A stretch of DNA of 63,357 bases, filler included, from 6 parts of 6 records of this genome joined end to end with filler, not necessarily neighbours in it; one strand, 5' to 3'; shown: positions 4,951 through 56,011, numbered from the whole stretch's first letter. Notes: a model not told the origin generated them from the letters alone. Program-made: numbers and translations.

Positions 4951-5265
4951 TTAATCATCGTCATCATCTCCCTCTACTCCTTCCAGATCCACATCTGGAA
5001 TGGCCTCTGGATCGTCATCGTCAAAATCCTCATAATCATCCTCATCGTAATTGGCCATAGTCTTTTCCAACTTGGCACTAATCTTGACAAGATATTTAGT
5101 ATCCTCGGTGGTCACCTCAACGGCCTCAATACGCTCTCCTTGCGCATTCTTGAAGGAGATGATATTAAGATCGTCGTACCCATCCGGATACTTCTCAACC
5201 AAAAGTTTCAAAACTTCGGGAGTAAGTTTTTTAAAGTCTACAATAACTCTTTTTAAATTGTCCAT
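4951..5265 (-). CDS. Small conserved hypothetical protein with an Asp/Glu-rich tail
   Basis: KRVIVDFKKLTPEVLKLLVEKYPDGY N-domain; acidic C-terminus; 3-nt gaps to both neighbours. Confidence 0.7.
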   Translation of the reverse strand: MDNLKRVIVDFKKLTPEVLKLLVEKYPDGYDDLNIISFKNAQGERIEAVEVTTEDTKYLVKISAKLEKTMANYDEDDYEDFDDDDPEAIPDVDLEGVEGDDDDD

Positions 5266-5268: not shown

Positions 5269-6246
5269 CTACATGTCTAATAGGTACGCAAAAATTAAGG
5301 GCGCAACAATGGTTGCATCACTTTCAATTATAAACTTAGGGGTGTTTATATCCAATTTTCCCCAGGTAATTTTCTCATTCGGCACTGCCCCGGAGTAGGA
5401 ACCGTAACTTGTGGTAGAGTCACTAATTTGGCAAAAATAACTCCAAAACGGCGTATCTGTCCTTTCAAGATCTTGGTACAACATAGGCACCACACAAATT
5501 GGGAAATCTCCGGCAATTCCACCACCTATCTGAAAAAATCCGATCCCTTTTTCAGAATTGGCGGTATACCAATCTGCCAGAAAGGTCATATATTCAATCC
5601 CGGACTTCATGGTGCTGGCCTTTAACTCCCCCTTTACCACATAGGAGGCAAAGATATTCCCCATGGTACTGTCTTCCCAACCTGGGCAAACTATGGGCAA
5701 ATTCTTCTCGGCTGCGGCGTACATCCACGAATCCTTAAGATCTATCTCATAATACTCTTCCAAAACCCCGGAAAGCAACAATTTGTACATAAACTCATGT
5801 GGCAAATATCTTTCTCCGGCGTCCTCAGCTTTTTTCCAAATTTCAAAAATATGCTTTTGCAGCCTTCGGAAGGCTTCGTGCTCCGGAATACAGGTATCCG
5901 TTACCCTGTTCAAGCCTTTCTCCAACAGATCCCACTCGTCCTGAGGGGTTAGATCACGGTAATTGGGCACGCGCTTATAATGGGAGTGGGCTACCAGATT
6001 CATGATATCCTCTTCCAAATTGGCACCTGTACAGGATATTATATGCACCTTATCCTGACGGATAATCTCGGCAAATATCTTCCCCAATTCTGCAGTACTC
6101 ATGGCCCCAGCCAAAGAGACCAGCATTTTGGAACCCTGTTTTAGTTGATCTTCATATCCCTTGGCGGCATCCACCAAAGCGGCCGCGTTAAAATGTAAAT
6201 AATACTTTTCAATAAAATTGGAGATCTCTCCTTTAGTCTTCGTCAT
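5269..6246 (-). CDS. Deoxyhypusine synthase-like protein, probable homospermidine synthase
   Basis: LAGAMSTAELG, CTGANLEED, IGGGIAGDF, GSYSGAVPNEKITWGK motifs; likely start ATG 6246 overlapping the speB stop. Confidence 0.9.
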   Translation of the reverse strand: MTKTKGEISNFIEKYYLHFNAAALVDAAKGYEDQLKQGSKMLVSLAGAMSTAELGKIFAEIIRQDKVHIISCTGANLEEDIMNLVAHSHYKRVPNYRDLTPQDEWDLLEKGLNRVTDTCIPEHEAFRRLQKHIFEIWKKAEDAGERYLPHEFMYKLLLSGVLEEYYEIDLKDSWMYAAAEKNLPIVCPGWEDSTMGNIFASYVVKGELKASTMKSGIEYMTFLADWYTANSEKGIGFFQIGGGIAGDFPICVVPMLYQDLERTDTPFWSYFCQISDSTTSYGSYSGAVPNEKITWGKLDINTPKFIIESDATIVAPLIFAYLLDM

Positions 6247-7177
6247 CGTCGAATTTTGAATTATTATTGCCTCCCACTTTGGAATCAACGTCATAAGTGT
6301 TGTCGTATTCGTCTTCTACGGCCTCACCCATAAATTTATAGCTAAGCATTTTGTAATATAATTTGGCTGCAAGGAAATCGGAAGTTTTATCCGCTTTATT
6401 GGGACAAAGTTCCACAATATCAAATCCTACAACATTTTTATCCTCGAAAACCTGCTTTAGAAACTCCAAGGTCTCATAATAGAACAAGCCTCCCGGTTCC
6501 GGGGTTCCTGTAGATGGCATAATGGACGGATCCAATGCATCCAGGTCAAAAGTTATAAAAACATTGTCCGTCATAAGGTCTATTACCTTATCCGTCCAAT
6601 ACTCATCGTTCACCATATCATGGGCGAAGAATGTTTTCTCTTCGTCTATAAAGGTTTTTTCAATGGCATCCATACTGCGTATCCCAACTTGGATAAGATT
6701 GGTAGTCTGACTTGCCTCATGAACCGCACAGGCGTGATTAAATTTACTACCATTGTACGACTTCCTTATATCTGCATGGGCGTCTATATGCAACACGGTA
6801 AGGTTATCAAAACACTCATTAAAGGCCCTAATGGTGCCTATGGAAATTGAATGCTCGCCCCCGAAAAGAGTAACAAACTTATTCCGTTTAATATACTCCT
6901 TGGTAACCTTGTGTACCGCATTTACCATAGCCTCTGGAGAACTGTCCTCTTCTATGGCATTTGCCAAATATATCCCTTGCTGATAGACCTCCGTATCGGT
7001 TTCTATATCATACCATTCCATATTTTCCGATGCTTCCAAAAAAGCCTTTGGCCCCTTGTCCGCACCTTTTCCCCAGGTACTGGTTCCATCATAAGGCACA
7101 GGTATCAAAACAACCTTTGCCTTTTCCAATTGCGCAAACTCGTCTGGTATGCCAGCGTAATTGTTAGTTGTATTCAT
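6233..7177 (-). CDS. speB: Agmatinase
   Basis: Ureohydrolase motifs GGEHSIS, DAHAD, TFDLDALDP, TGTPEPGG. Confidence 0.93.
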   Translation of the reverse strand: MNTTNNYAGIPDEFAQLEKAKVVLIPVPYDGTSTWGKGADKGPKAFLEASENMEWYDIETDTEVYQQGIYLANAIEEDSSPEAMVNAVHKVTKEYIKRNKFVTLFGGEHSISIGTIRAFNECFDNLTVLHIDAHADIRKSYNGSKFNHACAVHEASQTTNLIQVGIRSMDAIEKTFIDEEKTFFAHDMVNDEYWTDKVIDLMTDNVFITFDLDALDPSIMPSTGTPEPGGLFYYETLEFLKQVFEDKNVVGFDIVELCPNKADKTSDFLAAKLYYKMLSYKFMGEAVEDEYDNTYDVDSKVGGNNNSKFDDDED

Positions 7178-7197: not shown

Positions 7198-8655
7198 TTA
7201 AAGGTCAGATTTAATTTGCTTCACAGGGCTTTGGCCAACTTTGGCTTTGGCACTGGGTTTCATTTCATATCCCAAAATTTTAAGCAGGTCCTCTGCCTTT
7301 TGTTGTTCACTAAATAATTTGGTTGTTATATTTCCGTTTTCGTCCCTATCTATTAAAATATGTTTTGGATGAGGTATTAAACAATGCTGCAACCCTCCAT
7401 ATCCTCCAATAGTTTCCTGATAGGCCCCTGTATTGAAAAATCCAATATAAAGCGGTTTATCCTTTCTATACTTGGGCAAATAAATGGCATTCATGTTTTG
7501 CTCACTATTGTAATAATCATCACTATCGCAGGTTAGTCCACCCAACAATACCCGCTCATATTCATCCTGCCAACGATTAATGGCCAACATAATAAAGCGT
7601 TTGTTAATGGCCCAGGTATCCGGTAATGTCGTAATGAAGGAGGAGTCGATCATATTCCACTTCTCCCTATCGTTCTGCTGCTTCTGATAAAGTATTTCAT
7701 AAATGGCCCCGCCACTCTCACCTACTGTAAAACTCCCAAATTCGGTAAAAATATTTGGCACTGCAACATCCGCTTCCTGACAGGCAATATTAATTTGGTT
7801 GATGATCTCATCTATCATATATTGATAATCGTAATCAAAAGCCAAAGAGTTTTTTATGGGGAACCCACCACCAATATTAAGACTGTCCAGGGATGGACAT
7901 ATCTTTTTAAGCCTCACATACACCTTTAAACATTTAACCAATTCGTTCCAATAATAGGCATTGTCACGTATCCCGGTATTAATGAAAAAGTGTAGCATTT
8001 TTAACTCTACCTTGTCATTGTCCTTAATTTGATTCTCATAAAAAGGTACAATATTTTTGTATCCGATTCCCAGTCGCGAGGTATAAAATTCGAATTTTGG
8101 CTCCTCCTCGGAGGCAATTCTGATCCCCACTTTAAAAGTATCGTTGATAGCATCCGACAAAAGGTCTATTTCCTCATAATTGTCAATAATAGGAATACAA
8201 TTCTGGTGTCCGCTGTTTATTAGATTGGCTATATTGGCAATATATTGATCCCTTTTAAAACCGTTACATATGATATAGGTATTGTCCTTGATCTTACCCT
8301 TTTCCTTTAATTTTTCAACTATATTTATATCAAAGGCCGAAGAGGTCTCAATATGAATATCATTTTTTAAGGCCTCGTTGAGAACCGGTTTAAAATGGGA
8401 ACTCTTGGTACAATAGCAATAATGGTATTTACCTTTGTAGTTATTTTTTTCCATGGCTATCTTGAACCATTCCTTCGCCTTATTGATATTTTCGGAAATT
8501 TTTGGCAAATAGGTAAACTTCAAAGGACTACCGTATTCCTCCACCAAATCCATTAATGGAATTCCATGGAACTTTAGGTTTTCACCCTCCAAGGTAAACT
8601 CCTCCTGTGGAAAATAGTAGGTTTGATCTATAAGATTAATGTACTTCGTGTTCAT
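7198..8655 (-). CDS. speA: Arginine decarboxylase (alanine-racemase fold, Bacteroidota type)
   Basis: YCTKSS (PLP Lys), LNIGGG, TEFG, LTCDSDD, GAYQE motifs; directly upstream of agmatinase. Confidence 0.88.
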   Translation of the reverse strand: MNTKYINLIDQTYYFPQEEFTLEGENLKFHGIPLMDLVEEYGSPLKFTYLPKISENINKAKEWFKIAMEKNNYKGKYHYCYCTKSSHFKPVLNEALKNDIHIETSSAFDINIVEKLKEKGKIKDNTYIICNGFKRDQYIANIANLINSGHQNCIPIIDNYEEIDLLSDAINDTFKVGIRIASEEEPKFEFYTSRLGIGYKNIVPFYENQIKDNDKVELKMLHFFINTGIRDNAYYWNELVKCLKVYVRLKKICPSLDSLNIGGGFPIKNSLAFDYDYQYMIDEIINQINIACQEADVAVPNIFTEFGSFTVGESGGAIYEILYQKQQNDREKWNMIDSSFITTLPDTWAINKRFIMLAINRWQDEYERVLLGGLTCDSDDYYNSEQNMNAIYLPKYRKDKPLYIGFFNTGAYQETIGGYGGLQHCLIPHPKHILIDRDENGNITTKLFSEQQKAEDLLKILGYEMKPSAKAKVGQSPVKQIKSDL

Positions 8656-8732
8656 TTAATTAAATATATGAATTGTAAATAAGTAAATAGCATCGCCAAA
8701 TGCAAATAATATTAGGAATTATAACTAAATCT

Positions 8733-8903
8733 CTAAACAATTATCTGCTTTTCAGTGGTGGGTATAAAAAAATAGTCGTGCTGACTGCACACGATAGAAG
8801 AAAAATTTGGAACACCAAGTAAATTTTGGCCACCTATACCTTTAAATTTCAGTTGCCTGAATCTTTCTGTTGCCAGAAGCCCAAATTTGTAAATATGGTT
8901 CAT
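8733..8903 (-). CDS. Putative 56-aa leader peptide (uORF) of the speA operon
   Basis: ATG 8903 to TAG 8733, MNHIYKFGLLATERFRQLKFKGIGGQNLLGVPNFSSIVCSQHDYFFIPTTEKQIIV; too short for the ORF track. Confidence 0.4.
   Translation of the reverse strand: MNHIYKFGLLATERFRQLKFKGIGGQNLLGVPNFSSIVCSQHDYFFIPTTEKQIIV
8766..8888 (-). ncRNA. Candidate cis-regulatory structured leader RNA ending in an intrinsic terminator
   Basis: Closing stem AAAUUUGG/CCAAAUUU; two GCAA-tetraloop hairpins; GCCAA/UUGGU hairpin; terminator-like UCGUG..CACGA followed by U7. Confidence 0.55.
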
Positions 8904-9117
8904 TGTACTCAACTAGATGCTAATATCAAGATAAAATTTAAGGCTAAATTGATGTGACAAATGAAAACAAAAAAAATGAAAAAACAAGCGTTTTAAAAAA
9001 TTTTACGTTGAAGTAAAAAATGAATTCACCCAACAGTAAAAAATTAACTAAAAATTAAATTTAAAGCGTTGATTTTTAACCTTTTCTTGACTATTTTTAA
9101 ATAAAAACCAGATAGTC

Positions 9118-9840
9118 ATGAAGCTTACAAAAATTAGTGTTTTTATTGGTCTTATTCTCTTCCTCTCTTTTTTTGATAGAATTACGGCCCAAATTCCGGC
9201 CAACGTCTATCATTTTGAGGAAAAAAGCAAGGATGGAACCCTTCATCACGAGTTGAAATTGGACGCGGATTATTATGTGCATACCGTCTATAAAGAGTCC
9301 CCTGCAGAATTTATAAAAACGATGGGGGGCTACTACAAGACCTCGGGCAATAACCTAATGGTTGATCTTGAATTTAATTCCAACCATAAAGAAGACAAAA
9401 TTACCAGTATAAATGTACCCTATAAGTTAAAAAAAGGAAACTTGATACTCGAAGGGGTCAAGCCCATGACTTTTACGCCCACTAAACTTGGCACCCAAGA
9501 TCTTGACGGCAAGTGGTTAATGACCGGCCGTGTAACGGACCAGGGCGAGCAAAGAAGGGATACCTCCAGGCCACGAAAGACTATGAAATACTTATTGAAC
9601 GGACATTTTCAATGGATTGCCTACAACACCGAAACCTTTGAGTTTTTTGGTAGCGGGGGAGGAACCTATGAGGCTACCAATGGCAAATACACAGAAAATA
9701 TAGGCTACTTCTCTAGGGACAATTCCCGAGTGGGAGCCGCCCTTTCCTTTGATTACGAATTAAACGGCAAGGATTGGCACCATACCGGCAAAAGCAGTAA
9801 GGGCGACCCCTTAAATGAAATTTGGACAATACGGGACTAA
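9118..9840 (+). CDS. Secreted protein with two lipocalin-like beta domains
   Basis: Signal peptide; repeated GGYY/GGGTY strands; LDGKWLM motif. Confidence 0.6.
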   Translation: MKLTKISVFIGLILFLSFFDRITAQIPANVYHFEEKSKDGTLHHELKLDADYYVHTVYKESPAEFIKTMGGYYKTSGNNLMVDLEFNSNHKEDKITSINVPYKLKKGNLILEGVKPMTFTPTKLGTQDLDGKWLMTGRVTDQGEQRRDTSRPRKTMKYLLNGHFQWIAYNTETFEFFGSGGGTYEATNGKYTENIGYFSRDNSRVGAALSFDYELNGKDWHHTGKSSKGDPLNEIWTIRD

Positions 9841-39758: not shown

Positions 39759-40019
39759 GCGCTGTACTTCGCCAGTGCTAGAGGAGATCAATGGGCAGAC
39801 CCAAAAGGCGAGTATATATCCATGCAATTGGGATCTCGGGTATATTCTGAAATCTATCAGCAGGAAGTAAGTTTCCCTCTAGCTTTCGAAGAAATCGCTT
39901 CCCCCATAATTCAACCTTTTGCCGGCTATCATATCCGTGACGGCAAGCATAATTTAACCTGGGAGGATTGGAAAAATTTTATAGATTTTGCTGAAATTCA
40001 GTGGAAGCAAATCAGGTAA
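39759..40019 (+). CDS. CE15-like carbohydrate esterase, C-terminal fragment
   Basis: YFASA.GDQWADPKGE and GYHIRDGKH..T..DW. Confidence 0.7.
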   Translation, partial: ALYFASARGDQWADPKGEYISMQLGSRVYSEIYQQEVSFPLAFEEIASPIIQPFAGYHIRDGKHNLTWEDWKNFIDFAEIQWKQIR

Positions 40020-40080
40020 GCACCGGACACCATCTCTTTTTCTAAATAGTAACTTATCTAATCAAACCCATAATTAGCCC

Positions 40081-41082
40081 ATGAAAACCTTACTTTTCAT
40101 TTTATCTCTCTTCAGCTTTTTCCCTAAAACAGAAAAACCGAATGTGAAAATCCTAAGCTCTGGCTTCATCTACGAAGAAGCTCCTTACCCATCCTGCCAT
40201 GCGTCTACTTTAGTGGAGACAGACCGAGGAATAATGGCTTCCTGGTTTGGCGGGAGTTACGAAAGACATCCAGACGTTAGTATTTATACATCTCTTTTAG
40301 ACAAAGGAACTTGGTCTACTCCCAAAATGGTGGCTGACGGAATAGAAAATAAAGACTTCCGAAATCCTACTTGGAACCCGGTTCTATATCAGAACCCAAA
40401 TGGACAACTCGTACTTTTCTACAAGGAAGGTCCAAATCCCAAAGAATGGTGGGGACTATACAAAACTTCAGATAACGGAGGGAAGACCTGGTCTAAAGCC
40501 ATTCAAATTCCCCCAGGAATGCTGGGTCCTGTAAAAAACAAAGCCGTCACTTTGTCGGACGGAACACTGCTACATCCAAGTAGCTTCGAAACAAATGGCA
40601 TATGGAGCATGCATGTGGAAACTACTACCTCTGATATCACAAATTGGAAGAAAATTGAAATCGACAACGGCGCTTTTCATGCAATTCAGCCAACGATATT
40701 AACTTATCCAAATGGAAAACTCCAAATGCTTGCCCGAACTCAAGAAGATGTGATCGGAACGACCTGGTCCTCAGATAATGGTAAAACTTGGTCTACTGTA
40801 GAATCCACAGGATTGGTTCATAACAATTCAGGCATAGACGCAGTCACCTTAAAAAGTGGTGTACAATTATTGCTTTGCAATCCTATTAAAAAAGGCAGAA
40901 ACAAGCTCTCTCTGATGATGTCCATGGACGGAGTAAAGTGGGAAGAGCTATATGTATTAGAAGATCAACCTAAAGGTGAGTTCAGTTACCCAGCTATCAT
41001 TCAGGCGAAGGATGGCTCAGTTCACATGACCTACACTTATAATAGGGAGAAAATAAAATACGTTTCCTTAAACCTGGAATAA
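40081..41082 (+). CDS. BNR/Asp-box sialidase-like protein
   Basis: SCHASTL, SDNGGKTW and SSDNGKTW Asp-boxes, SYPAIIQ; signal peptide. Confidence 0.85.
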   Translation: MKTLLFILSLFSFFPKTEKPNVKILSSGFIYEEAPYPSCHASTLVETDRGIMASWFGGSYERHPDVSIYTSLLDKGTWSTPKMVADGIENKDFRNPTWNPVLYQNPNGQLVLFYKEGPNPKEWWGLYKTSDNGGKTWSKAIQIPPGMLGPVKNKAVTLSDGTLLHPSSFETNGIWSMHVETTTSDITNWKKIEIDNGAFHAIQPTILTYPNGKLQMLARTQEDVIGTTWSSDNGKTWSTVESTGLVHNNSGIDAVTLKSGVQLLLCNPIKKGRNKLSLMMSMDGVKWEELYVLEDQPKGEFSYPAIIQAKDGSVHMTYTYNREKIKYVSLNLE

Positions 41083-41104
41083 CCACTCCTCTTCAAACCT
41101 AGCC

Positions 41105-42031
41105 ATGTCTTTTCCCAAACCCTTGCGCGGAATTATCCCGCCATTGATTACTCCTATTCACGAAGATTTCACGCTTGATCATACCAGTTTGATCAAAATT
41201 CTAGAGCATACTATTTCTGCTGGTGTTCATGGGATCTTTATTCTTGGGACTACGGGAGAGTTTGCTAGTCTAAGCTCCATCGTAAAACATGAGCTGATTT
41301 CTATGACCTGCGCCAAGGTTGATGGCCAAATCCCTGTTCTTGTAGGGATCACTGACTGCTCCTTCAATGAAAGCCTAAATCTAGCAGCAAAAGCCTTGGA
41401 TTCAGGCGCAAGCGCTGTGGTAGCTACGTCGCCATTCTACATGAATATAGGCCAAGAAGAATTGGTTAATTATTACCAAAAACTGGCTGACAGAGTTGAG
41501 TTACCTCTTCTGCTCTATAATATGCCATCCCACACAGGGATGGCTATAGAGCTCAGTTCCGTGGCAATTCTGGCTGAGCACCCCAATATCATTGGCATCA
41601 AAGACAGTTCGGGAGATCTATCGTATTTCGAGTCTTTGTGCGATTTATTTAAAGAAAAACCCGATTTCACCATACTCGTAGGCCCCGAAGAATATCTGGT
41701 AGAAACGATGAATATGGGCGGGCATGGCGCTGTAGCTGGAGGAGCCAATTTATTCCCGGAGTTGTATGTCAAGCTTTATGAAGCCATTCTGGCAAAAAAC
41801 TATGAACAGGTTGAAGCGCTACAGGTGACAGTTTTATTTCTGAGTAAGAATCTATACGGTCATGGCACCTACAAATCGAATTACCTTAAAGGACTCAAGG
41901 CTTCCATGTCATTTTCAGGATTGTGCAAGGGCATTTTAGCTTTGCCACTTTTTCCATATAGTGAGGACGAAAAAACAAGTCTCAAAGATAAATATGATGC
42001 GGTCTTAGCGAGAGTGACTTCAGTACTTTAA
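41105..42031 (+). CDS. Dihydrodipicolinate synthase / N-acetylneuraminate lyase family aldolase
   Basis: LGTTGE, LYNMP, GIKDSSG. Confidence 0.9.
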   Translation: MSFPKPLRGIIPPLITPIHEDFTLDHTSLIKILEHTISAGVHGIFILGTTGEFASLSSIVKHELISMTCAKVDGQIPVLVGITDCSFNESLNLAAKALDSGASAVVATSPFYMNIGQEELVNYYQKLADRVELPLLLYNMPSHTGMAIELSSVAILAEHPNIIGIKDSSGDLSYFESLCDLFKEKPDFTILVGPEEYLVETMNMGGHGAVAGGANLFPELYVKLYEAILAKNYEQVEALQVTVLFLSKNLYGHGTYKSNYLKGLKASMSFSGLCKGILALPLFPYSEDEKTSLKDKYDAVLARVTSVL

Positions 42032-42487
42032 TTAGCTTTCAAAGCCCGGTTTCACCATTTCCCAAAACTCATCCAAGGCTATAATCCTTGGTTTGAGAAA
42101 GGAAATAATTTCTGGCCAATCCATCTCATCCATCACATTCACTGCTGGCAATATTTTCTCTATCCTAGAGACCGTCTGCCCAAATTCATTGATCTGATGT
42201 AGTTTCCAGCTCCATTCCTCTCCTAGAGTTGACTCCAATATCTTCCGAAGTTGCCCAAATTGATCAAAGTACAGTTCCTGCAACTCTTCATCGGGATGAC
42301 CTAATTCAATTCCTATAGAAGCAAAGTCACGCTCGGCCTTCATCCTAAAATAAATGTTTCGAACTCCCGTCTTGTAGTTAGGCCAATTTATCCTTCTTCC
42401 CTCTGCATTCGGAATTGGCTTCATGTATTGCCCGAAAGCAATCCAAAACTCCGAACGGATTCTCGATGTTTCAGCTTTGCTGTACAA
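42032..42487 (-). CDS. DUF4268-like protein
   Basis: EFWIAFG..NWPNYKTG..ALDEFW pattern. Confidence 0.7.
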   Translation of the reverse strand: MYSKAETSRIRSEFWIAFGQYMKPIPNAEGRRINWPNYKTGVRNIYFRMKAERDFASIGIELGHPDEELQELYFDQFGQLRKILESTLGEEWSWKLHQINEFGQTVSRIEKILPAVNVMDEMDWPEIISFLKPRIIALDEFWEMVKPGFES

Positions 42488-42489
42488 GA

Positions 42490-43353
42490 CTAATAGGTGG
42501 TATGACTGTCGCTTGGTAGGACAAGAATAATCTCCCCAGAAGTTGCATTCGCATCTTCCAGCTTGTCAATCTGATCTTGAGTCACCATGTGAATATTGAA
42601 AATCTTAATAGCAGGAAACTCCTTTTTCAGGTACCAAAGTATCCCCTCTCCATCTTTGGAATGATAAGATCCATTGATATGATAAACCTTCTTACCCTTG
42701 GACAGAGGTTCAAAAAGTGACTCGGCCATGGTTGCGTCTTTCAATGCCTGCGCTTGAATCATCAAATCTGGATTCCCTGGCGCACCATGCATCATATCCT
42801 TCATCGCCACATATCCTGGCATGCTCATATCCACTTCCATTGGGAGCTTCGCAAAGTACCTTTTAGCCTCTGGTGAAAGAGAATCCAAACCTGCTAAGCC
42901 TGCCTTACTGACAAGAGAAGCATATTTCCGCGGAACATTCGTTGCTATAAATCTCAGTCCTTTCTCTTTCGCGTAGCGCAACACAGGACGGTAATCAGTA
43001 TTATAATTCTTCCAAAGATTAGCTTCTGCTTCGAAGTTACTTTCTGTTATTTGACCGGCAAACCATTGGTCCAAGTTCAGCTGATCTTCACGCTCAAAAA
43101 TCTCTGACCCCACGACAAGATCTGAGTGTTCCGTCTGCAATCCTTTCAGTACTTGCAACTGCAACCAATGACCCACGCTGTTATTATGAAGTTCTCCGAA
43201 GAAAACAGCATCTGCTTTTGCCGCTTCTTTCAGCACTTGTTGGAGATCTACTTTTTTGCCTTTGCTAGTAAAAAACTGATAGGCTTCTCCTTGTGCTTTA
43301 AGTGTTCCTATAGAACACAGCACCAGTAGGACAGCCAAGAAATAATTACGCAT
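42490..43353 (-). CDS. ChaN-like (DUF399) putative heme/iron uptake protein
   Basis: FFGELHNN, EIFER, ATNVPR, QALKDATMA, NGSYHS. Confidence 0.8.
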   Translation of the reverse strand: MRNYFLAVLLVLCSIGTLKAQGEAYQFFTSKGKKVDLQQVLKEAAKADAVFFGELHNNSVGHWLQLQVLKGLQTEHSDLVVGSEIFEREDQLNLDQWFAGQITESNFEAEANLWKNYNTDYRPVLRYAKEKGLRFIATNVPRKYASLVSKAGLAGLDSLSPEAKRYFAKLPMEVDMSMPGYVAMKDMMHGAPGNPDLMIQAQALKDATMAESLFEPLSKGKKVYHINGSYHSKDGEGILWYLKKEFPAIKIFNIHMVTQDQIDKLEDANATSGEIILVLPSDSHTTY

Positions 43354-43711
43354 AATCTTCAGGATATTGAATTTGCACGGAGGAGAAACTTACTAACCCA
43401 CCGAGTGCGGGGTGATGCTTTTTGAGCGTTAATCTAATTTTGGTGGTTTTGGGATATGCTTCCAGAATATCTGTCACGATCATATGGCCTAGATGCTCCA
43501 GGAGCTTCACCTTTACATCCATTCTGGCTTTGATCAGTTTGTACAACTTGGAATAATCCACCGTCGCACTGAGATCATCATGAAGCATCGCCTGGCGAAA
43601 ATTTGTTTCCAGTTCAAGATCCAACGTGAAGCGATTCCCTAAGACAGATTCCTCTGGATAGGCACCGTGATACGCATGAAATTCAATCCCTTCGAGACTC
43701 ACTTTTCCCAT
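43346..43711 (-). CDS. folB: Dihydroneopterin aldolase
   Basis: FHAYHG..EE..GNRF, DDLSATVDY, LLE. Confidence 0.93.
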   Translation of the reverse strand: MGKVSLEGIEFHAYHGAYPEESVLGNRFTLDLELETNFRQAMLHDDLSATVDYSKLYKLIKARMDVKVKLLEHLGHMIVTDILEAYPKTTKIRLTLKKHHPALGGLVSFSSVQIQYPEDYA

Positions 43712-44670
43712 TAGTCAAATTGGTCAAAAAATGATCCCGATTGGTTCTTCGGATCTTCCGTAGGTTTTTGAGGGGAAGCTTGCGGCTTTAATTCCTCCAC
43801 AATTGGCTTTTGCTTCACCTCTTCCAATTCTTCTATATCCTCCTCAAGAGCCTCATCTTCCAGTTGCATCTTGGTGTCTTCTAATTCTAGCTCCTCTATT
43901 TCCTCTTCATTGATTTCCATTTCCAAATCAGGCGTAGAATCATGCTCTTCAAGTTCTAAGTCCTCTTCGATAACTTCCATCTCAGCCATTGGATTCTCTT
44001 CGATTTCCTCCTCTATTATCTCTTCTTCATATCCAAGATTCTCCAAATTGCCAAAAGTAAAAGTCTGAGATCTACTCAATTCATCTATAGCACGCGCATG
44101 TGCTTTGGCATCTATTCTGGAAAAATGCGCTTCTGAAAGATCGATTTGATTGGCGGTATCCTGTGCAATTCTTCTCAGGCTTTTCACCATAGATTCTCTT
44201 TGCTCAGCTAGCCCTTCATACGAACGCACCAAGCCCTGCATGCTTTCTCGCAACTCTACGATAGTTTCTTTTGCTTTGGTCTCAGCAGCATTTATAAGTG
44301 CTGCAGCCTGCTCTTCGGTCTGTCTTCTAGAATCGGCTACCATCTGGTCTAAATGTCTGGTAGCATTTGCTGCGATCTCATTTGCATCTGCGATGATCAA
44401 ATCAGCCGCTTCGTTAGCTTCCACAATGATCGCTGCACCAGTATCCTCTGCTGTTTTCAGTGTACGGAAAAGTGAGTCCTCCACATCCTTCAAGCGCTTT
44501 GCCTCCGCTTCTGTATTTTGAAGCTTAGTCTTAAGCTCCATATTTTCTTTGTGAAGCTGATCGACTACTTCAGAGATTTCATCCAAAAATAGGGTAACTT
44601 CTTTTTTCTCATATCCTCTGAATCCAACTTCAAAGGTTTTTTGCCGAATGGCTGCTGGTGTGATCTTCAT
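43711..44670 (-). CDS. DivIVA domain protein
   Basis: ITP..I.QK.F..GFRGY...EV..FL N-terminus, coiled coil, acidic tail. Confidence 0.85.
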   Translation of the reverse strand: MKITPAAIRQKTFEVGFRGYEKKEVTLFLDEISEVVDQLHKENMELKTKLQNTEAEAKRLKDVEDSLFRTLKTAEDTGAAIIVEANEAADLIIADANEIAANATRHLDQMVADSRRQTEEQAAALINAAETKAKETIVELRESMQGLVRSYEGLAEQRESMVKSLRRIAQDTANQIDLSEAHFSRIDAKAHARAIDELSRSQTFTFGNLENLGYEEEIIEEEIEENPMAEMEVIEEDLELEEHDSTPDLEMEINEEEIEELELEDTKMQLEDEALEEDIEELEEVKQKPIVEELKPQASPQKPTEDPKNQSGSFFDQFD

Positions 44671-44673
44671 GTG

Positions 44674-45588
44674 TTAATTCGCTTCAATTTGCCAAATAGA
44701 AATAGTACGGTCGTCTGACACGGAAATAACGTTGCCTTGATAGCTACTCCAAATTACCTTGTTAATTGAAGTACCGTGGCCTGCATTTCTTGCTTTGTCG
44801 ATGACCTTGAGGAGTTTTTTCTCACCTGCATCCCAAATCTTTATCGATTTGTCCATAGAGCAGGTGACTAGGAGATTCCCGTCCTCCTTGAAATATAAAT
44901 AATTAATGGCATACATATGTGCCACAATGTTCTCTTGTAAGGAATAGCTATCAGTTTCCCAAAATTTTAATCGTGCATCCCTTCCAGCGCTCACCAAAAT
45001 TGATTCATCTGGGGAATAAGAAAGTGCGAAAACTGAGTTGGTATGTCCAGTCAAATTGGCAACAGGATGAAAATCGTTTGATAAATCAAGAACCTTCACG
45101 GTATGATCACTCAAGCCCACAGCCAGCTGACGTTTGTCTTTAGCCAAAGACATAACTCGAATACTCTTCGTGCTCAGCTTGATATGTTTTTTAATCGTTT
45201 TGGAATTGATATCCACCACGATCAATACCCCATCTCCTGTACCAATATAGGCTTCATCGCCGAATATTTTGATATCAAAGATCGCCTGATCAGTCAACTT
45301 AAGTGACCACACTTCCTTGCTTTCATTCAGGTCGATGACATGGATGCCTTCAAAATTATGCCCGATAAAAAGCAGGTTTCTGCTAAAATCTACCGACAAG
45401 GCATACACTGAGTGCGGAAGTCTGGCGATCAACTTACCATCTTTGGGATGATCTAAATCCCACTCCACCACCATTCCATCTCCGGCTCCGGTATAAAAAT
45501 ATCTGGGATCACAACCTTCAGTCAACGCATAAATGCAGTCATTGTGCCCTGTTAGTGTTTGTAATTTATTAACTTCTATTTTTGACAT
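44674..45588 (-). CDS. WD40 repeat protein
   Basis: GH..WD/WE repeats (LTGHND, LTGHTN, DKSIKIWD). Confidence 0.9.
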   Translation of the reverse strand: MSKIEVNKLQTLTGHNDCIYALTEGCDPRYFYTGAGDGMVVEWDLDHPKDGKLIARLPHSVYALSVDFSRNLLFIGHNFEGIHVIDLNESKEVWSLKLTDQAIFDIKIFGDEAYIGTGDGVLIVVDINSKTIKKHIKLSTKSIRVMSLAKDKRQLAVGLSDHTVKVLDLSNDFHPVANLTGHTNSVFALSYSPDESILVSAGRDARLKFWETDSYSLQENIVAHMYAINYLYFKEDGNLLVTCSMDKSIKIWDAGEKKLLKVIDKARNAGHGTSINKVIWSSYQGNVISVSDDRTISIWQIEAN

Positions 45589-45623
45589 ATATTGGACGGA
45601 GACTTTCGGTGCCCTTCTGGCCT

Positions 45624-46253
45624 ATGCAAACAAAAATAGAAAAAATAGATTCTTCCTCGGCTTTAGCTATCAAGATTATCGAAACTCAGGATGAAAATGA
45701 GCTGGATTTCCTGAGCTTTCGTGAAAAACTATCCTACGCCAATATTTCTCATCAGGAAAAAAAGCGAGAATGGGCTACTGCCCGCATGGCAATCCGGGAT
45801 GCTTTGGATGTATTGCACGTTCCTTATCCAGGTTTTTTCAAAGATGAACATGGTAAATCTCAAACGATGAACGGGCATGGCTACATGTCACTATCGCACA
45901 CGATGGGCTATGCAGGGGCAATTTATCATCGCGACAATCCAGTCGGAATAGATATGGACTTGATCAGGGAAAAAATACTGAGAATTGGATTCCGGTTTCT
46001 GGACCAGTCAGAATTAGATTTTCTAGCAAAAGACCCACTTGATTACACGATGGCTTGGTCGGCAAAAGAATCTATCTTTAAGTGTCAGGGAAAAAGAGGC
46101 GTATCCTTCAGAGAGAACATCCTTTTAGAACCATTTGACTCGAAGACTGGAATCATCAAAGGTAAGATCCGAGGTACGGACTTTACGGATCATCATTACA
46201 CAGTACAAGTTCGGGTGATCTCGGATGTTGTGCTCACTTACACTATCTGGTAA
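45624..46253 (+). CDS. 4'-phosphopantetheinyl transferase family protein
   Basis: SLSHT, VGIDMD, WSAKESIFK; likely start ATG 45624. Confidence 0.88.
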   Translation: MQTKIEKIDSSSALAIKIIETQDENELDFLSFREKLSYANISHQEKKREWATARMAIRDALDVLHVPYPGFFKDEHGKSQTMNGHGYMSLSHTMGYAGAIYHRDNPVGIDMDLIREKILRIGFRFLDQSELDFLAKDPLDYTMAWSAKESIFKCQGKRGVSFRENILLEPFDSKTGIIKGKIRGTDFTDHHYTVQVRVISDVVLTYTIW

Positions 46254-46832
46254 ATGAAAAAATTAAGCTTAGTATTCCTCTTTCTGCTTTTCACTTCTGT
46301 ATCTCTTTCAGCTCAAGGTCTAGAAGGAATAAATCTAACTGATGCAGTCACGGGCAAAGCCATCAATATTCAGTCTCAGGTGAAAGGCAAAGGCTTAGTA
46401 CTGATCTTCCATAGTTTGGCATGTCCTTTTGCCAAACTATATGAAGCTCGATTGATTGCTTTGCGCAGCAAATACCAAAGTCAAGGTTTTACTTTTATAC
46501 TTGTGAATCCTGAGGTCAGCGGGAGTGAAGAAGATAAAACCACGCTCCGAAACTACATTGATCAATCGGACATCAATATGCCCTACTTGATAGATGAAAA
46601 TCAAACGCTCAGCAAATTCTACAAAATCACCAAAATCCCTGAAGTAGTTCTGATTACTCCTGGTTCGACTGGAAACACAATTAGCTATAGGGGTGCAATT
46701 GATAATAATCCTCAGGCCGAAACTGCCGTATCCGCAAAACATCTAGACAGGGCTATGGACTCTTTACTGAAAGGCGAAGCGCCAAGTCCAGGGCAAGCTA
46801 GAGCTGTAGGCTGTAACCTACGTACCTATTAA
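46254..46832 (+). CDS. Thioredoxin-like / AhpC-TSA family protein, exported
   Basis: ACPFA, PYLIDE, YRGAIDN, AVGC. Confidence 0.8.
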   Translation: MKKLSLVFLFLLFTSVSLSAQGLEGINLTDAVTGKAINIQSQVKGKGLVLIFHSLACPFAKLYEARLIALRSKYQSQGFTFILVNPEVSGSEEDKTTLRNYIDQSDINMPYLIDENQTLSKFYKITKIPEVVLITPGSTGNTISYRGAIDNNPQAETAVSAKHLDRAMDSLLKGEAPSPGQARAVGCNLRTY

Positions 46833-47671
46833 GAATTTAACAGATTGATAAGCTCCTGAATTTCTTGCACTTTATCGGATTCCCCTAGTTTCTCGAAGGA
46901 GTTTTCCAGATTCCTAAACATCCGCAGCATAATCTGAAGATGAGCACATGGCTCAAAGTAATCCTCCTTGGGATCGATCTTCAGTTGCTCCAAGTAGTTA
47001 AAAATATCTTTTCTACTGAATATCAAACCCTTATTAAAAGCATTGATGTAGAAAGTGACATCGGCTGATTTATAGGTAAGTACAAAGAGATTTGGAAGAT
47101 TCACACCGTAAATCGGCAACCCAAGTTTTTTCGCTACGAGCAAATAAATAGAACATAATGTCAGTGGATTTCCACGCTTGGAATCCAGCACAGACGAGAG
47201 CATGCTATTAGCCGGAGAATGAAAATTCTTGGTATTTGCAGAGAATCGAAGCGTATTATACAAGACATTGTTGATGGCCCGCACCTGCTCGTAGGGAGTC
47301 AAATCATTTTTGAAAGCAGTCCATACATCGAAGTAAATCTGATGCATTTCAGCATTCAGTTTGGAGTATTCCAAATCTGGATATTGGTAGGTATTGATGA
47401 TCCATAGCCCCGTGAGCAGGTCTCGGTCATCCGTATCTCTCCAGTCTGTCAATCGTGCTTTGAGAAGAGAAAACTGGAGCTCGTGCACCAGATCCTCTAT
47501 CTCTTTTTGTATATCAGGGTTAAAGCTATTTTCCCACTTTTTCTCCAGAAACGGAATAATCTCATTTCCAAGAGAAGTAATCCGGTCCCGCACGTGAATT
47601 CTCACTTCGCGATCGGTATCGTCCAATAAGGAAACTAAGGCATTTAATTCACTGGGAGTCAAATCACTCAT
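46829..47671 (-). CDS. SirB1/transglutaminase-like protein
   Basis: ALVSLLDD, VLDSKRGNP..L, GVNLP..F. Confidence 0.8.
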   Translation of the reverse strand: MSDLTPSELNALVSLLDDTDREVRIHVRDRITSLGNEIIPFLEKKWENSFNPDIQKEIEDLVHELQFSLLKARLTDWRDTDDRDLLTGLWIINTYQYPDLEYSKLNAEMHQIYFDVWTAFKNDLTPYEQVRAINNVLYNTLRFSANTKNFHSPANSMLSSVLDSKRGNPLTLCSIYLLVAKKLGLPIYGVNLPNLFVLTYKSADVTFYINAFNKGLIFSRKDIFNYLEQLKIDPKEDYFEPCAHLQIMLRMFRNLENSFEKLGESDKVQEIQELINLLNS

Positions 47672-47727
47672 TGTTAAAACCTAGGGATATTGAATTAAAA
47701 CTATAAAATAAGATACTAAAAAATATC

Positions 47728-49356
47728 TTAAGTCTGAATCACACCTACGTTGAATCTTTCTGTAATGGGTGCATGATTCGCAGCTTCTATGCCCATGCTG
47801 ATCACTTTTCTGGTCTCCCGAGGATCAATCACGCCATCTACCCAAAGTCTGGATGCCGCATAGTAAGGGCTCAATTCCTCGTTGTATTTTGAAGTGATTT
47901 CGTCTAGCAATTCCTTTTCATCTTCAGGAGATATTTCCAGACCTTTCTTCTTCAATCCAGCAACCTTGATTTGCAAAAGCGTATTTGCTGCTGCTGCTCC
48001 AGACATCACTGCCATCTGAGCTGTAGGCCAAGAGTAAATCAATCGAGGATCATAGGCTTTTCCGCACATCGCATAGTTTCCTGCTCCGTATGAATTACCT
48101 AGAAGAAAAGTGAATTTCGGTACCACTGAATTCGCCATGGTGTTTACCATTTTCGCTCCATCCTTGATGATGCCTCCATGCTCAGCTTTGCTGCCCACCA
48201 TAAATCCACTTACGTCCTGAAGGAAAACTAAAGGGATTTTGCGCTGATTGCAATTCATAATAAATCGAGCGGCCTTATCTGCTGAGTCTGAATAAATCAC
48301 CCCTCCCATCTGCATTTCGCCTTTGGAAGTTTTAACGATCTTTCGCTGATTAGCCACTATCCCTACTGCCCAACCATCAACTCTGGCGGTTCCGCAAATC
48401 AGCGTTTTACCATAGTCCTCCTTGTATTCGTCGAAGTCTCCAGCGTCTACTAAACCCTTGATGATTTCAAGCATGTCATACGGCTTAACGCGCTCTGTAG
48501 GAAAGACCTCTACTAGCTTTTCACCCGACATTCCAGGATCTCGAGCTTCTGCTCTATCAAAACCTGCTGTGGGATTGTGCCCTATTTTATCAAAAATCTT
48601 ACGGATCGCATCCAGGCAATCCTGATCTGTATCGTATTTATTATCTGTCACTCCTGAGATTTCGCAGTGCGTAGTTGCTCCACCGAGTGTTTCATTGTCT
48701 ATCGTCTCGCCTATAGCTGACTTCACCAGATAAGAACCTGCCAAGAATATAGATCCCGTCTTATCTACAATCATCGCCTCGTCCGACATAATAGGAAGAT
48801 ATGCCCCTCCTGCCACACAACTACCCATGATCGCAGCAACTTGCACAATCCCCATTGCCGACATTTTTGCATTATTGCGGAATTGACGACCAAAATGCTC
48901 TTTGTCGGGGAAAATCTCATTTTGCATAGGCAGAAAAACTCCTGCGCTATCGACTAAGTAAATCACAGGAATTTGATTCTCCATGGCGATCTCCTGAGCT
49001 CGAAGGTTTTTCTTGGCTGTCATCGGAAACCATGCCCCAGCCTTTACCGTGGCATCGTTGGCAACGATCATACACATTCTTCCGCTCACATAGCCAATAC
49101 CCGTGACTACGCCACCAGAAGGACAACCGCCTTCTTCAGCGTACATTCCATCGGCTACAAATGCGCCAACTTCTAAAAAATCTGTGTCTTTATCACGCAA
49201 ATAGTCTATACGCTCACGTGCAGTGAGCTTGCCTTTCGCATGTTCTTTTTCTATCCTTTTGGCTCCTCCTCCTAGCTTTACCTGCTCATATTTCGCCTGT
49301 AAATTCTGAAGTAAATTTTCCATGCTTGGATTAGAATTTCCGGTAGTTGTGGTCAT
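47728..49356 (-). CDS. Acyl-CoA carboxylase beta subunit (methylcrotonyl-CoA carboxylase-like)
   Basis: GKLTARERI, ANDATVKAG, GSCVAGGAY, GFMVG, GNYAMCG. Confidence 0.92.
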   Translation of the reverse strand: MTTTTGNSNPSMENLLQNLQAKYEQVKLGGGAKRIEKEHAKGKLTARERIDYLRDKDTDFLEVGAFVADGMYAEEGGCPSGGVVTGIGYVSGRMCMIVANDATVKAGAWFPMTAKKNLRAQEIAMENQIPVIYLVDSAGVFLPMQNEIFPDKEHFGRQFRNNAKMSAMGIVQVAAIMGSCVAGGAYLPIMSDEAMIVDKTGSIFLAGSYLVKSAIGETIDNETLGGATTHCEISGVTDNKYDTDQDCLDAIRKIFDKIGHNPTAGFDRAEARDPGMSGEKLVEVFPTERVKPYDMLEIIKGLVDAGDFDEYKEDYGKTLICGTARVDGWAVGIVANQRKIVKTSKGEMQMGGVIYSDSADKAARFIMNCNQRKIPLVFLQDVSGFMVGSKAEHGGIIKDGAKMVNTMANSVVPKFTFLLGNSYGAGNYAMCGKAYDPRLIYSWPTAQMAVMSGAAAANTLLQIKVAGLKKKGLEISPEDEKELLDEITSKYNEELSPYYAASRLWVDGVIDPRETRKVISMGIEAANHAPITERFNVGVIQT

Positions 49357-49625
49357 TAGTCAAATTTGGGTTTAGTCAGTTAAACCATTGCTTTCAGCAA
49401 ATAGTTTATGCCTCTAAGTTAAAAAAGAAAAAGCTAACAGTCGCAGTCCTTAGGCTCACAGTCGCAGTATTCAGTTTCCGAAAAGCAGACTAGAGAGCAT
49501 TTTCATTAACAGGAAAATGCAAGCGGATAGGAGCAAAAACAAGCTAGATTAAATATCATTTTCCAGCTTCTGGAGAAGCAGGACAACTGTATTCATTTGT
49601 GCCCACCGCGGTGAAAGCAATCCAT

Positions 49626-49657
49626 AAAAAAGCCCTCTTCCGATACAGAAAAGGGCT
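49626..49657 (-). terminator. Terminator downstream of the amidase gene
   Basis: AGCCCTCTTC...GAAAAGGGCT hairpin with an A-run (U-run on the minus strand). Confidence 0.6.
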
Positions 49658-49680
49658 AAGTATTATGCGAAAACTAGAAA

Positions 49681-50481
49681 TTAATTTTTCTCTATTGATT
49701 CTTTGTAGTCTCTGATCGATCTGTAAATAGCCGAAGCCATATACTCTTTACCTTCCTGACTCATTAGAAATCTCTCTTCCTCCGTATTGGAAAGAAAGCC
49801 AAGCTCCACCAAAACTGATGGCATAGAAGGAGTCCAAAGCACGTAGAATGGACCTTGCTTTACACCACGGCTTTTTCTACCTACTCTATCTTTAAACTGA
49901 GCTTCAACATTAGCCGCTAAAGTTACAGAATTCTCAAAGTGAACTTTTGACATTAAGTTAAACATCATGTAGGATTCCGGAGAGGAAGGATCGAATCCTT
50001 CGTAGTTCTCCTCGTAATTATCCTCTAGGAGGATTACAGAGTTTTCTCGTTTTACAATGTCAAAGTTGGCATCAAAGTGTTTTGTACCCATCACAAATGT
50101 CTCTGTCCCAAAGGCAGATTTATTTGGCGCTGAGTTGGAATGAATCGAGACAAATAGATCTGCTTTGTTGTTATTTGCAATCATAGGCCTTTCCTTCAAC
50201 GTAGGAAAGCTATCATCCTTTCGGGTGTAGACTACTTCCACATCAGGCATATTTTCCTTGATATATTTCCCAACCAGCAGAGTTACAGCTAGATTGATGT
50301 CTTTTTCCTTAGCCCTTGATCCTACATTACCTGGATCTTTTCCACCGTGTCCGGCATCGAGAACGATTTTTTTCATCCGAAACTTCGGCATCATCGTTTC
50401 GTTGTTGATAAATCCGCCAAACACAAAGGGAATGCATAAAATCAGACTAAGAAGAATTTTTTTGTTTTTGGACCGTTCCAT
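49681..50481 (-). CDS. N-acetylmuramoyl-L-alanine amidase (Amidase_3)
   Basis: LDAGHGGKDPG, EK, SIHSN, VLVELGF; likely start ATG 50481. Confidence 0.92.
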   Translation of the reverse strand: MERSKNKKILLSLILCIPFVFGGFINNETMMPKFRMKKIVLDAGHGGKDPGNVGSRAKEKDINLAVTLLVGKYIKENMPDVEVVYTRKDDSFPTLKERPMIANNNKADLFVSIHSNSAPNKSAFGTETFVMGTKHFDANFDIVKRENSVILLEDNYEENYEGFDPSSPESYMMFNLMSKVHFENSVTLAANVEAQFKDRVGRKSRGVKQGPFYVLWTPSMPSVLVELGFLSNTEEERFLMSQEGKEYMASAIYRSIRDYKESIEKN

Positions 50482-50542
50482 GAGGGCAATAAAATTAACT
50501 TTACACGAAATTTCACTCAAATTAAATAAAGCGTAAGCAACA

Positions 50543-53281: not shown

Positions 53282-53291
53282 TCCGACATCG

Positions 53292-54506: not shown

Positions 54507-54735
54507 GGAATTATGTATTTTACATCAATTGAATTTATAAATTATCAATAATTCAATAAATAACCTAAATCAATAACAATTCAATAACGTAAATTTTATC
54601 CTCCACTTGGAGATGTACATCCAGGTTGATCCTTCCTCGTTGTTGGACTCAGGAAAATACTCGTAAACTGAGCAGTCAAATCAAAGCCCAGCACTTTTGA
54701 TTTTCTCCGCTATTCCCTAAAAAACCAACCCCACT

Positions 54736-56011
54736 TCAGTTAAGCTTGATCTGACTTTTTCTTGTTGAATAAAGTCCATTTTGATAGTCTCCATCACATG
54801 CTTCCAAAAGGGCTGTCTTTAGTGATGCTAATTTATCTGGATGAAGTGCAGACAGATCATTTTCTTCCTTCAAATCCTCAGGTAAAAAGAACAATTCAAA
54901 AACATTTTTTGATAAAATCGTCCTCAATTTCCATCCATCCTGTGTAATCAAGGTCGGGCCAGTAAAGGAAGAATAAACCACAAAATCATGTTGCAAATCT
55001 TCTATCCCTTCTCCAACCAATTCATTATAAAATGAAAGCCCATCTGATTCAAAGGGTTTTGAATAGCCAGTGATTTCGGCAATTGTGGGGAGCAAATCAT
55101 AATTAGCCGTAAGACGTTGGCTGACTGCGCCCTTCCCTATTTTTTCAGGCCATTTGATAATTAATGGGACTCTAATTCCACCTTCTAAATTACTCCGCTT
55201 CATTCCAGCCTGACCTCCATTACCATCAAAAACATCCCCAGCCAACTCACTGTAATATTTATTGGTGTGATCATCAAATCTTTCCCCGGTTTGGATATTG
55301 GTATAAGGTTTTTCTATCCGGCCTTCTTTGCTGTAGTAAATCTCATGTCCATTGTCAGACGTGAAAATCACCAGCGTATTCTCTTCAAGATTTAATTCTC
55401 TAAGCTTTTCTACAATCTGCCCCACGTTGTCATCCAGCATTTTGACCATGGAAGCATATTCCTTCTCAATGGAAGTCAATCGATCATCGTTAGCAAAATC
55501 AGGATGAATTTCCGGTATAGACACTGGTCCATGGGGTAATTGAGTTGGGAAATAAATGAAAAATGGATTCTCCTTATTGGATTCAATAAAACCCAGTAGC
55601 CCTTGCATAAAAATATCCTGAGAATAGGTTTCCTTTCCGTTTTTATCCCAGCGTTCCTTGTAACTGGCTTCTGTCTCGGGCTCTATGGATTTCCCTGCGT
55701 TAGGCAGCGTATTACCATCATAGTGTACCATTTTTCCATTTTCAAACAAAAAAGGAGGATAAAAACCATGTGCTCTACCATGATCCAGATATCCCAAATA
55801 ATAATCCCACCCATGTCTAACTAATTGCTGATGAGTGGTAGAAAAGCCCCATTCCAATTTACCAAACTGAGCAGTTTTATACCCCATACCTTGAGCCACT
55901 TGCCCCATAAACACCTGGTCCTTTGAAACTTCAGGCAACTTTTCATTTACAGATTTCTCTATAGCTGACAACGTAGATTCTTCTGCGCGCACATATGCTC
56001 CTGCATTGGAA
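54736..56011 (-). CDS. Sulfatase family protein (5'-truncated)
   Basis: GYKTAQFGK, PH, FTSDNG, EGGIRVP, DLLPT. Confidence 0.85.

Follow-up and report, generated by a model that had tools for sequence, protein, structure and literature searches.

A candidate polyamine-operon leader of Flavobacteriaceae with a covarying RNA fold and a conserved peptide in one upstream reading frame

Described leaders of polyamine genes and the Flavobacteriaceae leader

In eukaryotes, upstream reading frames control polyamine synthesis. The regulation of polyamine synthesis in Bacteroidota is, to our knowledge, uncharted, and these bacteria mostly initiate translation without Shine-Dalgarno sequences. This study concerns the minus-strand stretch 8733-8951 in front of a speA-like gene, within a window of 63,357 nt (the whole stretch of DNA that was analysed, six joined parts with filler included). 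On balance, this stretch appears to be the 5' leader of an mRNA for the speA product, an agmatinase, a deoxyhypusine-synthase-like (DHS-like) protein, and a small protein, and to carry two overlapping layers. The first layer is an upstream open reading frame (uORF) of 56 codons; the second is a conserved RNA fold in the same frame, formed by the helices P1, P2, and P3 and a pseudoknot. As judged from the comparisons given below, the leader has no earlier description and is specific to Flavobacteriaceae; it combines a covarying pseudoknotted junction with a conserved nascent peptide in one uORF.

In proteobacteria, uORFs with conserved C-termini control polyamine genes via stalling and Rho, according to the relevant parts of PMC7815308. 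MdtU, from the mdtUJI operon of E. coli, has 34 codons, ends 106 nt before mdtJ, and is linked to spermidine and Rho (Adams et al. 2021, PMC7815308). It resembles the Flavobacteriaceae uORF in that its C-terminus is the most strongly conserved part, and in that the stop codon lies about 100 nt before the main gene (106 nt vs 77 nt here). The polyamine response of MdtU is coupled to premature Rho termination; for the Flavobacteriaceae leader such coupling is only proposed. MdtU differs in being shorter, in belonging to gamma-proteobacteria, and in preceding an exporter gene, and no embedded covarying three-way junction is described in those parts of the report. SpeFL, the orf34 leader of speF, shows ornithine-dependent stalling near its stop codon, which is reported to affect Rho access and mRNA structure (cited in PMC7815308). 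It is also a leader peptide upstream of a polyamine-synthesis decarboxylase, but it is a gamma-proteobacterial sensor of ornithine, and its peptide is apparently unrelated. The window peptide has no match to any Pfam or NCBIfam family, the presence of a SpeFL model in either library being unconfirmed. In the yqgB-speA leader of E. coli, a validated uORF is followed by a 3' end downstream of it (PMC7815308). Here speA itself lies behind a uORF-bearing leader, although in another phylum and with no known structured domain of this kind.

The odc1 motif (uORF-25-1) of alpha-proteobacteria is an extended hairpin with a conserved 11-codon uORF upstream of ornithine decarboxylase (Brewer et al. 2021, PMC8632094). 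As outlined in the sections of that report on odc1, a conserved RNA structure and a uORF of fixed length with a conserved peptide precede a polyamine-pathway decarboxylase, and the motif is thought to act in cis on translation. These features are shared with the Flavobacteriaceae leader. However, odc1 has a single hairpin and a stop codon 2 nt from the main start; in Flavobacteriaceae, a three-way junction and a pseudoknot lie inside a uORF of about 56 codons, which ends about 77 nt before speA. The ldcC RNA motif is an orphan candidate cis-regulator upstream of arginine, ornithine, and S-adenosylmethionine decarboxylase genes (Weinberg et al. 2017, PMC5737381). It is likewise an orphan RNA thought to serve polyamine homeostasis, whereas it is a bulged hairpin, is found in Firmicutes and Spirochaetes, and has no uORF described in the main text of that report. 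By description and by searches of Rfam, Pfam, and NCBIfam, none of these precedents (odc1, MdtU, SpeFL, yqgB, and ldcC) appears to be related to the leader in sequence or structure.

An earlier reading of the window, made from the sequence alone, had proposed a polyamine- or arginine-sensing riboswitch or attenuator at 8766-8888 (hereafter the sequence-only reading), and had recognised no named RNA family in it. The searches agree with the latter point. In Rfam 15, the best match of the window stretch 8000-9800 at E <= 10 scored 22.9 bits against a gathering score of 42, which is chance level. For ten related loci, the sole match at E <= 0.5 was a tRNA, with odc1, ldcC, potC, and the known riboswitch classes unmatched. 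Literature searches yielded no paper that describes a leader, a uORF, or an RNA motif of speA in Flavobacteria or Bacteroidetes, and the main texts of PMC11109978 and PMC5737381 mention neither speA nor Flavobacteria. The element is widespread in Flavobacteriaceae and has strong comparative support; neither annotation nor Rfam contains it.

Reading frame, peptide, and RNA fold in the same codons

Comparison among the leaders shows a conserved reading frame with protein-type selection in its 3' part and RNA covariation in its 5' part, an exclusive single-copy linkage to the operon, and an enrichment of terminator-like sites. On the minus strand, 8912-8733 forms one open frame, which the sequence-only reading overlooked. 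The uORF proper (8733-8903) starts with ATG at 8903-8901, stops with TAG at 8735-8733, 77 nt before speA, and encodes MNHIYKFGLLATERFRQLKFKGIGGQNLLGVPNFSSIVCSQHDYFFIPTTEKQIIV. A first set of leaders was collected by a DNA profile search in the speA upstream regions of 110 fetched loci. The element was found in 43 of them, all among 80 Flavobacteriaceae loci and none among 30 loci of the genus g1; together with the window, this gave 44 leaders. In 44/44 leaders, no stop interrupts the aligned frame for 50-60 codons, whereas the other two frames reach at least 48 codons in 0/44 and 2/44, closing after a median of 0 and 11 codons. A second set came from a family-wide covariance-model search, with 74 hits fetched and 72 analysable. 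In this set the frame is open for at least 48 codons in 72/72 leaders, against 0 and 3 for the other frames, the start codon having been chosen as the one giving the longest frame within +/-4 nt, which mildly favours open frames.

The start codons share one alignment column (ATG 26 and TTG 18 in the first set; ATG 20, TTG 47, and GTG 5 in the second). The length of the uORF is held at about 55-57 codons, and its end at about 70-90 nt before speA. As would be seen for a leader peptide, a short frame is conserved upstream of speA on the same strand, with 48-60 codons in all but a few leaders. Just ahead of the start codon there is a conserved 5' box (8905-8916, minus strand), which reads CTAGTTGAGTAC in the window and UUAGCUGAACA in the family consensus. 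Its columns are nearly invariant both in alignment A1, made from the first set, and in alignment A3, which holds 113 distinct sequences.

The codons for the C-terminal peptide (8736-8786, minus strand; about the last 18 including the stop) encode SQHDYFFIPTTEKQIIV before the stop in the window. They follow the class A motif SQHxYxFxPTT..QIx[VIL]-stop, which occurs in about 70/116 leaders (70 distinct sequences). When 34 distinct class A sequences are compared over their last 19 codons, the mean pairwise difference is 0.30/0.25/0.56 at codon positions 1/2/3. In the codons for S, Q, H, F, P, and T, positions 1 and 2 are nearly invariant and position 3 is variable. In class A, the C-terminal part thus evolves as expected under protein-type purifying selection. 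Relative to A. algicola (L034), the window has two synonymous changes (Ile and Pro) and no amino-acid change in the C-terminal 25 codons, against seven amino-acid changes in the N-terminal 31. The hairpin and U7 that the sequence-only reading took for an intrinsic terminator translate to IVCSQHDYFFI. Because the last 18 or so codons evolve like protein, this apparent terminator lies within conserved codons. For riboswitch searches, this is a warning that an apparent terminator may be conserved because it is coding.

A peptide motif under purifying selection, in a gene always linked to the operon, might also suggest a small trans-acting protein, such as a modulator that targets the decarboxylase in the manner of an antizyme, with the fold just tuning its translation. 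This explanation appears quite unlikely. The N-terminal 33 residues are without protein-type constraint, and unrelated classes of C-terminal tail occur while the ORF length and the RNA fold persist. The position of the uORF is always 5' of the operon, and its spacing to speA is fixed. Just one matching protein was found among 5.8 billion protein clusters, in addition to the lack of a Pfam or NCBIfam family.

The structured 5' RNA domain (8803-8888, minus strand) is contained in about codons 6-34, of which about 7-33 show RNA-like evolution. The 5' half of the frame, roughly the first 32 codons, has no codon periodicity, with differences of 0.36/0.34/0.33 at positions 1/2/3. In the family fold, P1 (UUCGG/CCGAA) starts 18-19 nt past the uORF start codon and encloses the P2 and P3 hairpins in a three-way junction, and a pseudoknot joins the P2 loop GGAAGU with ACUUCC in the 3' tail. 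In A3, 91.5% of the cells of P1, P2, P3, and the pseudoknot are paired, whereas shuffles reach 82.4%. Double changes were counted in 272 cells (76 +/- 7 in shuffles), and compensated changes occur in 24 of the 26 pairs. Not one shuffle among 500 reached these values on any pairing or covariation measure, and slid controls gave 32-55% pairing. The smaller first set also supports the fold by covariation. The pseudoknot was absent from the search model, yet five of its six pairs show compensated changes. Single-sequence minimum free energy (MFE) folds of two leaders (L070 and L059) yield the P1-P2-P3 junction.

Many of the compensations alter amino acids; for example, UUGAAG/UAUUCAA and UUGGGA/AACCCAA encode Lys..Tyr-Ser and Gly..Asn-Pro, respectively. 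Such changes again suggest that the constraint on the 5' half acts at the RNA level and not at the protein level. The leader provides a natural example of RNA-level and protein-level selection overlapping in the same reading frame. An additional pairing between UUAGCU in the 5' box and AGCUAA in the 3' tail was also considered. It is unsupported, with 83.6% pairing against 82.9% in shuffles and a covariation score under the shuffle mean.

The element shares one general feature of riboswitches, a conserved, covarying, structured domain in a 5' leader, as placed here by the promoter-like box and the predicted transcript start. An aptamer with its expression platform in untranslated RNA was not found, as the domain lies inside a conserved ORF. 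A classical untranslated riboswitch would consist of an aptamer at 8888-8803 and an intrinsic terminator at 8794-8766, the ORF being incidental. The many conserved unpaired bases and the covarying junction and pseudoknot of the 5' domain are aptamer-like, a hairpin and U7 follow the domain in the window, and without an Rfam match the riboswitch would form a new class. Even so, this explanation is very improbable. The frame is open in all leaders of both sets (44/44 and 72/72), while the other frames close at medians of 0 and 11 codons. The region of the supposed terminator varies at the third codon position and is invariant at the first and second, and leaders not in the YFF subgroup have ..GGCTTTGT.. 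in place of the U-run.

A different possibility is that agmatine, a polyamine, or arginine is bound by the 5' domain as a genuine aptamer, unusual in its location in the reading frame and gating the translation of an arrest-peptide uORF. This reading is held only tentatively and is rather unlikely. We know of no natural riboswitch established for the agmatine, polyamine, or arginine classes. If it were true, the leader would integrate an RNA sensor and a nascent-peptide sensor to set polyamine synthesis in about half of Flavobacteriaceae.

All elements drawn in the sequence-only reading are present on the minus strand of the window, at the coordinates given there. These include the 8-bp stem AAATTTGG (8888-8881) / CCAAATTT (8810-8803), the tandem hairpins TTCTG-GCAA-CAGAA (8878-8865) and TTCAG-GCAA-CTGAA (8861-8848), and the third hairpin GCCAA (8830-8826) / TTGGT (8818-8814). 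The MFE fold of 8796-8892 matches the drawing exactly. The compensatory U-A to A-U swap between the tandem hairpins is a difference between neighbouring copies in one sequence, not evolutionary covariation. Within Arenibacter these hairpins decay: L034 and L035 have lost pairs with no compensating change, and in A. nanhaiticus (L036) another, single hairpin takes their place. The proposed pairing of GGTATA (8840-8835) with TATACC (8766-8761) exists in the window and is used in one MFE fold. By inspection, the complementarity is not kept in relatives, where one partner corresponds to a P3 strand and the other to Ile-Pro codons; this pairing was rejected. In summary, a conserved, structured, cis-linked RNA does head the speA-speB-DHS-like operon, and the original observation is real, yet it was misread. 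The whole domain lies inside a conserved uORF and is not an untranslated riboswitch, and the conserved core differs from the drawing, consisting of P1, a single P2 hairpin, P3, and the pseudoknot from the P2 loop to the 3' tail. Given the neighbouring genes, sensing of a polyamine or arginine is still a reasonable guess.

Arenibacter is a divergent member of the family. Its two tandem 14-nt GCAA hairpins (8848-8878, minus strand) are lineage-specific and occupy the place of the single P2 of the family. The window homologue of P1 would be TTTGG (8885-8881) with CCAAA (8829-8825). The 8-bp stem of the sequence-only reading instead takes CCAAATTT (8810-8803), which is at the position of the pseudoknot 3' strand. 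Either the homologous P1 or the 8-bp stem may close the window structure; five close sequences favour neither.

Terminator-like sites and a candidate mechanism

Inside the uORF, the hairpin P4 (also T1) is formed by TCGTG (8794-8790) and CACGA (8780-8776) and is followed by U7 (8772-8766; whole feature 8766-8794, minus strand). A G+C-containing hairpin is thus followed by a U-run at 8794-8766, as in intrinsic terminators. The terminator scan also found this hairpin and T-run, with two sites in the window sequence against 0.6 +/- 0.7 in shuffles. Of the terminator claimed earlier, the hairpin and T7 are present, T7 lying 110 nt before the speA ATG (8655), but they are inside the uORF. The last 28 uORF codons hold terminator-like sites in 36/115 leaders, compared with 8.5 +/- 2.6 in dinucleotide shuffles. 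A stem anchored on the Gln-His codons is longer, at 3.75, than with permuted upstream partners (2.91 +/- 0.12; 0/1000).

A second hairpin, T2, lies between the uORF stop and speA (8677-8703, minus strand). It is formed by GCATT (8703-8699), the loop TGGC, and GATGC (8694-8690), followed by a T-rich run (8689-8677). This spacer site is at +29 to +43 past the uORF stop in the window, and the hairpin is weak, with five pairs. Terminator-like sites were found in the spacer of 28/107 leaders, against 5.3 +/- 2.4 in shuffles, and are clustered at +20 to +45 nt past the stop. MFE folds of the spacers retain the spacer hairpin. These features are consistent with transcription attenuation in the leaders that carry them, though they are not universal. 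As terminator-like sites occur in a minority of leaders, a single family-wide termination mechanism is not supported.

The explanation favoured here, with somewhat better than even confidence, is that the leader acts in cis: translation of the uORF, gated by the RNA fold and maybe stalled by the peptide, would be coupled to premature termination before speA. The RNA-constrained part begins at the leading edge of an initiating ribosome. A helix P0, proposed by RNAalifold, would pair CUGAAC (-9 to -4; 8912-8907 in the window) with GUUCGG (+18 to +23), enclosing the start codon and competing with P1. The RNA fold, or P0 as its competitor, might determine if ribosomes get into and through the uORF, and at what rate. 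Once the uORF is translated, the conserved C-terminal peptide might stall the ribosome near the stop codon, as in SpeFL and as proposed for MdtU. Ribosome occupancy would then decide between early termination and read-through into speA. Termination might take place at the hairpin and U7 in the uORF (8794-8766), at the spacer hairpin (8703-8677), or via Rho. The signal is probably a metabolite of the polyamine pathway, such as arginine, agmatine, putrescine, or homospermidine, and the leader is a concrete candidate sensor for a polyamine, agmatine, or arginine.

The overlap of the structured domain with the translation start region would also suit an operator, to which a protein or another trans factor (the 104-aa protein of the operon, the decarboxylase, or a ribosomal component) binds to repress or activate uORF translation. 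The small protein without a known family is always in the regulated unit, and is found behind the leader even where speA is not adjacent; the modest folding energy suggests that a partner could be needed. However, nothing links any protein to the RNA, and conserved junction bases with a pseudoknot are equally typical of aptamers. An operator thus seems unlikely, if less so than a protein acting in trans. Classical amino-acid attenuation, in which the ribosome pauses at Arg codons when charged tRNA-Arg is scarce, would fit an operon that consumes arginine. The uORF has two or three Arg codons (R14 and R16 in the window; R13, R22, and R26 in the family consensus), and terminator-like hairpins follow. 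Nevertheless, there are no tandem Arg codons of the kind seen in trp-, his-, and leu-type attenuators. Those present fall within helices and loops under RNA constraint (AGG in the loop of P2, CGA in the 3' strand of P1), and the protein-conserved part of class A contains no Arg. This is the least probable of the explanations considered.

Several observations weigh against translation-coupled termination through the uORF, in addition to the choice of start codons mentioned above. The P4 stem has at least five pairs in just 26/67 leaders, and the scan detected terminator-like sites in about a quarter to a third of leaders. The P0 pairing reaches 92%, mostly by conservation, and its covariation is weak, with 11 double-change cells against 3.2 in shuffles. 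The class A peptide is not universal. Other tails occur, such as ..RLAYWLNPIRI, ..QYKLCFVPKxQYQIMI, and ..TIFIFRI, which share with class A just a hydrophobic-x-hydrophobic-stop ending. Arenibacter is without the family P2 loop and pseudoknot motif, so that the window's own fold is uncertain. The fold energy in the window is ordinary, with z = -0.62 for 8756-8900 and z = -0.70 for 8796-8892; in each case 46/200 shuffles fold as well. Finally, uORF translation, the start near 8951, and 3' ends at 8766 and 8690 are predictions from the sequence; the public RNA runs hold contigs only, none of which spans the leader stretch. One run (X2) of uncertain kind, "probably DNA", has a 194-nt contig corresponding to 8760-8953, approximately from the predicted start to just past U7. 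Coming from one study with contigs only, it is not evidence for a short transcript.

Operon, promoter, distribution, and genomic setting

The leader stretch sits in a 462-nt spacer between divergent genes, the regulated genes being on the minus strand. The first gene of the operon (7198-8655) encodes a speA-like decarboxylase of 485 aa, dependent on pyridoxal phosphate, with the Pfam domain Orn_Arg_deC_N. Its top NCBIfam matches are arginine decarboxylase models, with scores under the model cut-offs, and it is 99% identical to a protein of Arenibacter echinorum. The second gene (6233-7177) encodes an agmatinase, with an NCBIfam score above the cut-off. It is followed by the DHS-like gene (5269-6294), with a score below the cut-off, and by a fourth gene (4951-5265) for an acidic protein of 104 aa that has no Pfam family; all are on the minus strand. 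In the trio of decarboxylase, agmatinase-like, and DHS-like genes, the part at 5269-7177 gave weak NCBIfam matches, scoring under the cut-offs, to the models "homospermidine biosynthesis protein" and "1,9-bis(guanidino)-5-aza-nonane synthase". These weak matches hint at a possible route from agmatine to homospermidine.

A promoter of Bacteroidota type is predicted at 8958-8987 (minus strand), with the -33 TTG at 8987-8985, a 19-nt spacer, and the -7 box TTCATTTG at 8965-8958. It was assigned by matching to what we take to be the -7/-33 consensus of Bacteroidota. The match implies a predicted transcript start at about 8951, upstream of the whole element. A T[T/A]CATTTG-like box with an upstream TTG also lies upstream of the uORF in most of the 113 leaders. 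In 55/113 leaders the box starts at -28 to -30; for the Arenibacter/Maribacter group, its position is -62 to -65.

With the covariance model of the 5' part, the element was found in 74/151 sampled Flavobacteriaceae genomes, as a single copy in 73. Five whole genomes gave one significant hit each, at the speA locus. In the second set, speA directly follows the leader in 67/72 cases; in one genome, two inserted genes separate the element from speA. The genus g1, which includes the genome G001, has a speA at about 60% protein identity, and the element in 0/30 loci. A class-wide scan with the RNA model gave no hit in 150 other genomes, the single hit among the 151 being the centre genome. A DNA search with the 462-nt spacer found nothing useful in 41 genomes treated as relatives. 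The nominally nearest of the genomes, G001, is merely 64-68% identical at the speA locus and is not a relative there.

Some additional observations were made on individual loci. Homologues of the 104-aa protein (61-66% identity over 70 aligned residues) lie directly behind the same leader element in L195, L196, and L201, with no speA adjacent. In L196, the uORF frame continues into the gene of this homologue. The leader and the small-protein gene are followed there by a fused gene for a GNAT acetyltransferase and a carbon-nitrogen hydrolase (L196:886-2409, plus strand). This fused gene may be polyamine-related, through a presumed link to the N-carbamoylputrescine amidase family. In one genome, a second, weaker copy of the RNA domain (L190/L199, G231:C1:2671044-2671174) was detected at E 1.4e-7. 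No uORF start is recognisable in this copy, and the ORF behind it, of 113 aa, belongs to no known family.

Elsewhere in the window, a block of about 16.25 kb (approximately 39760-56011) is 98-99% identical to one contiguous G001 stretch (C30:225296-241549), whereas G001 is otherwise just 64-72% identical to the window, speA locus included. Such a near-identical block amid low identity suggests either that it was recently transferred horizontally from one genus to another or that the contig is chimeric. At about 49559-49596, a word of about 26-35 nt recurs at 94-100% identity in at least 14 other places on several G001 contigs. In appearance, it is a dispersed short repeat similar to the REP elements.

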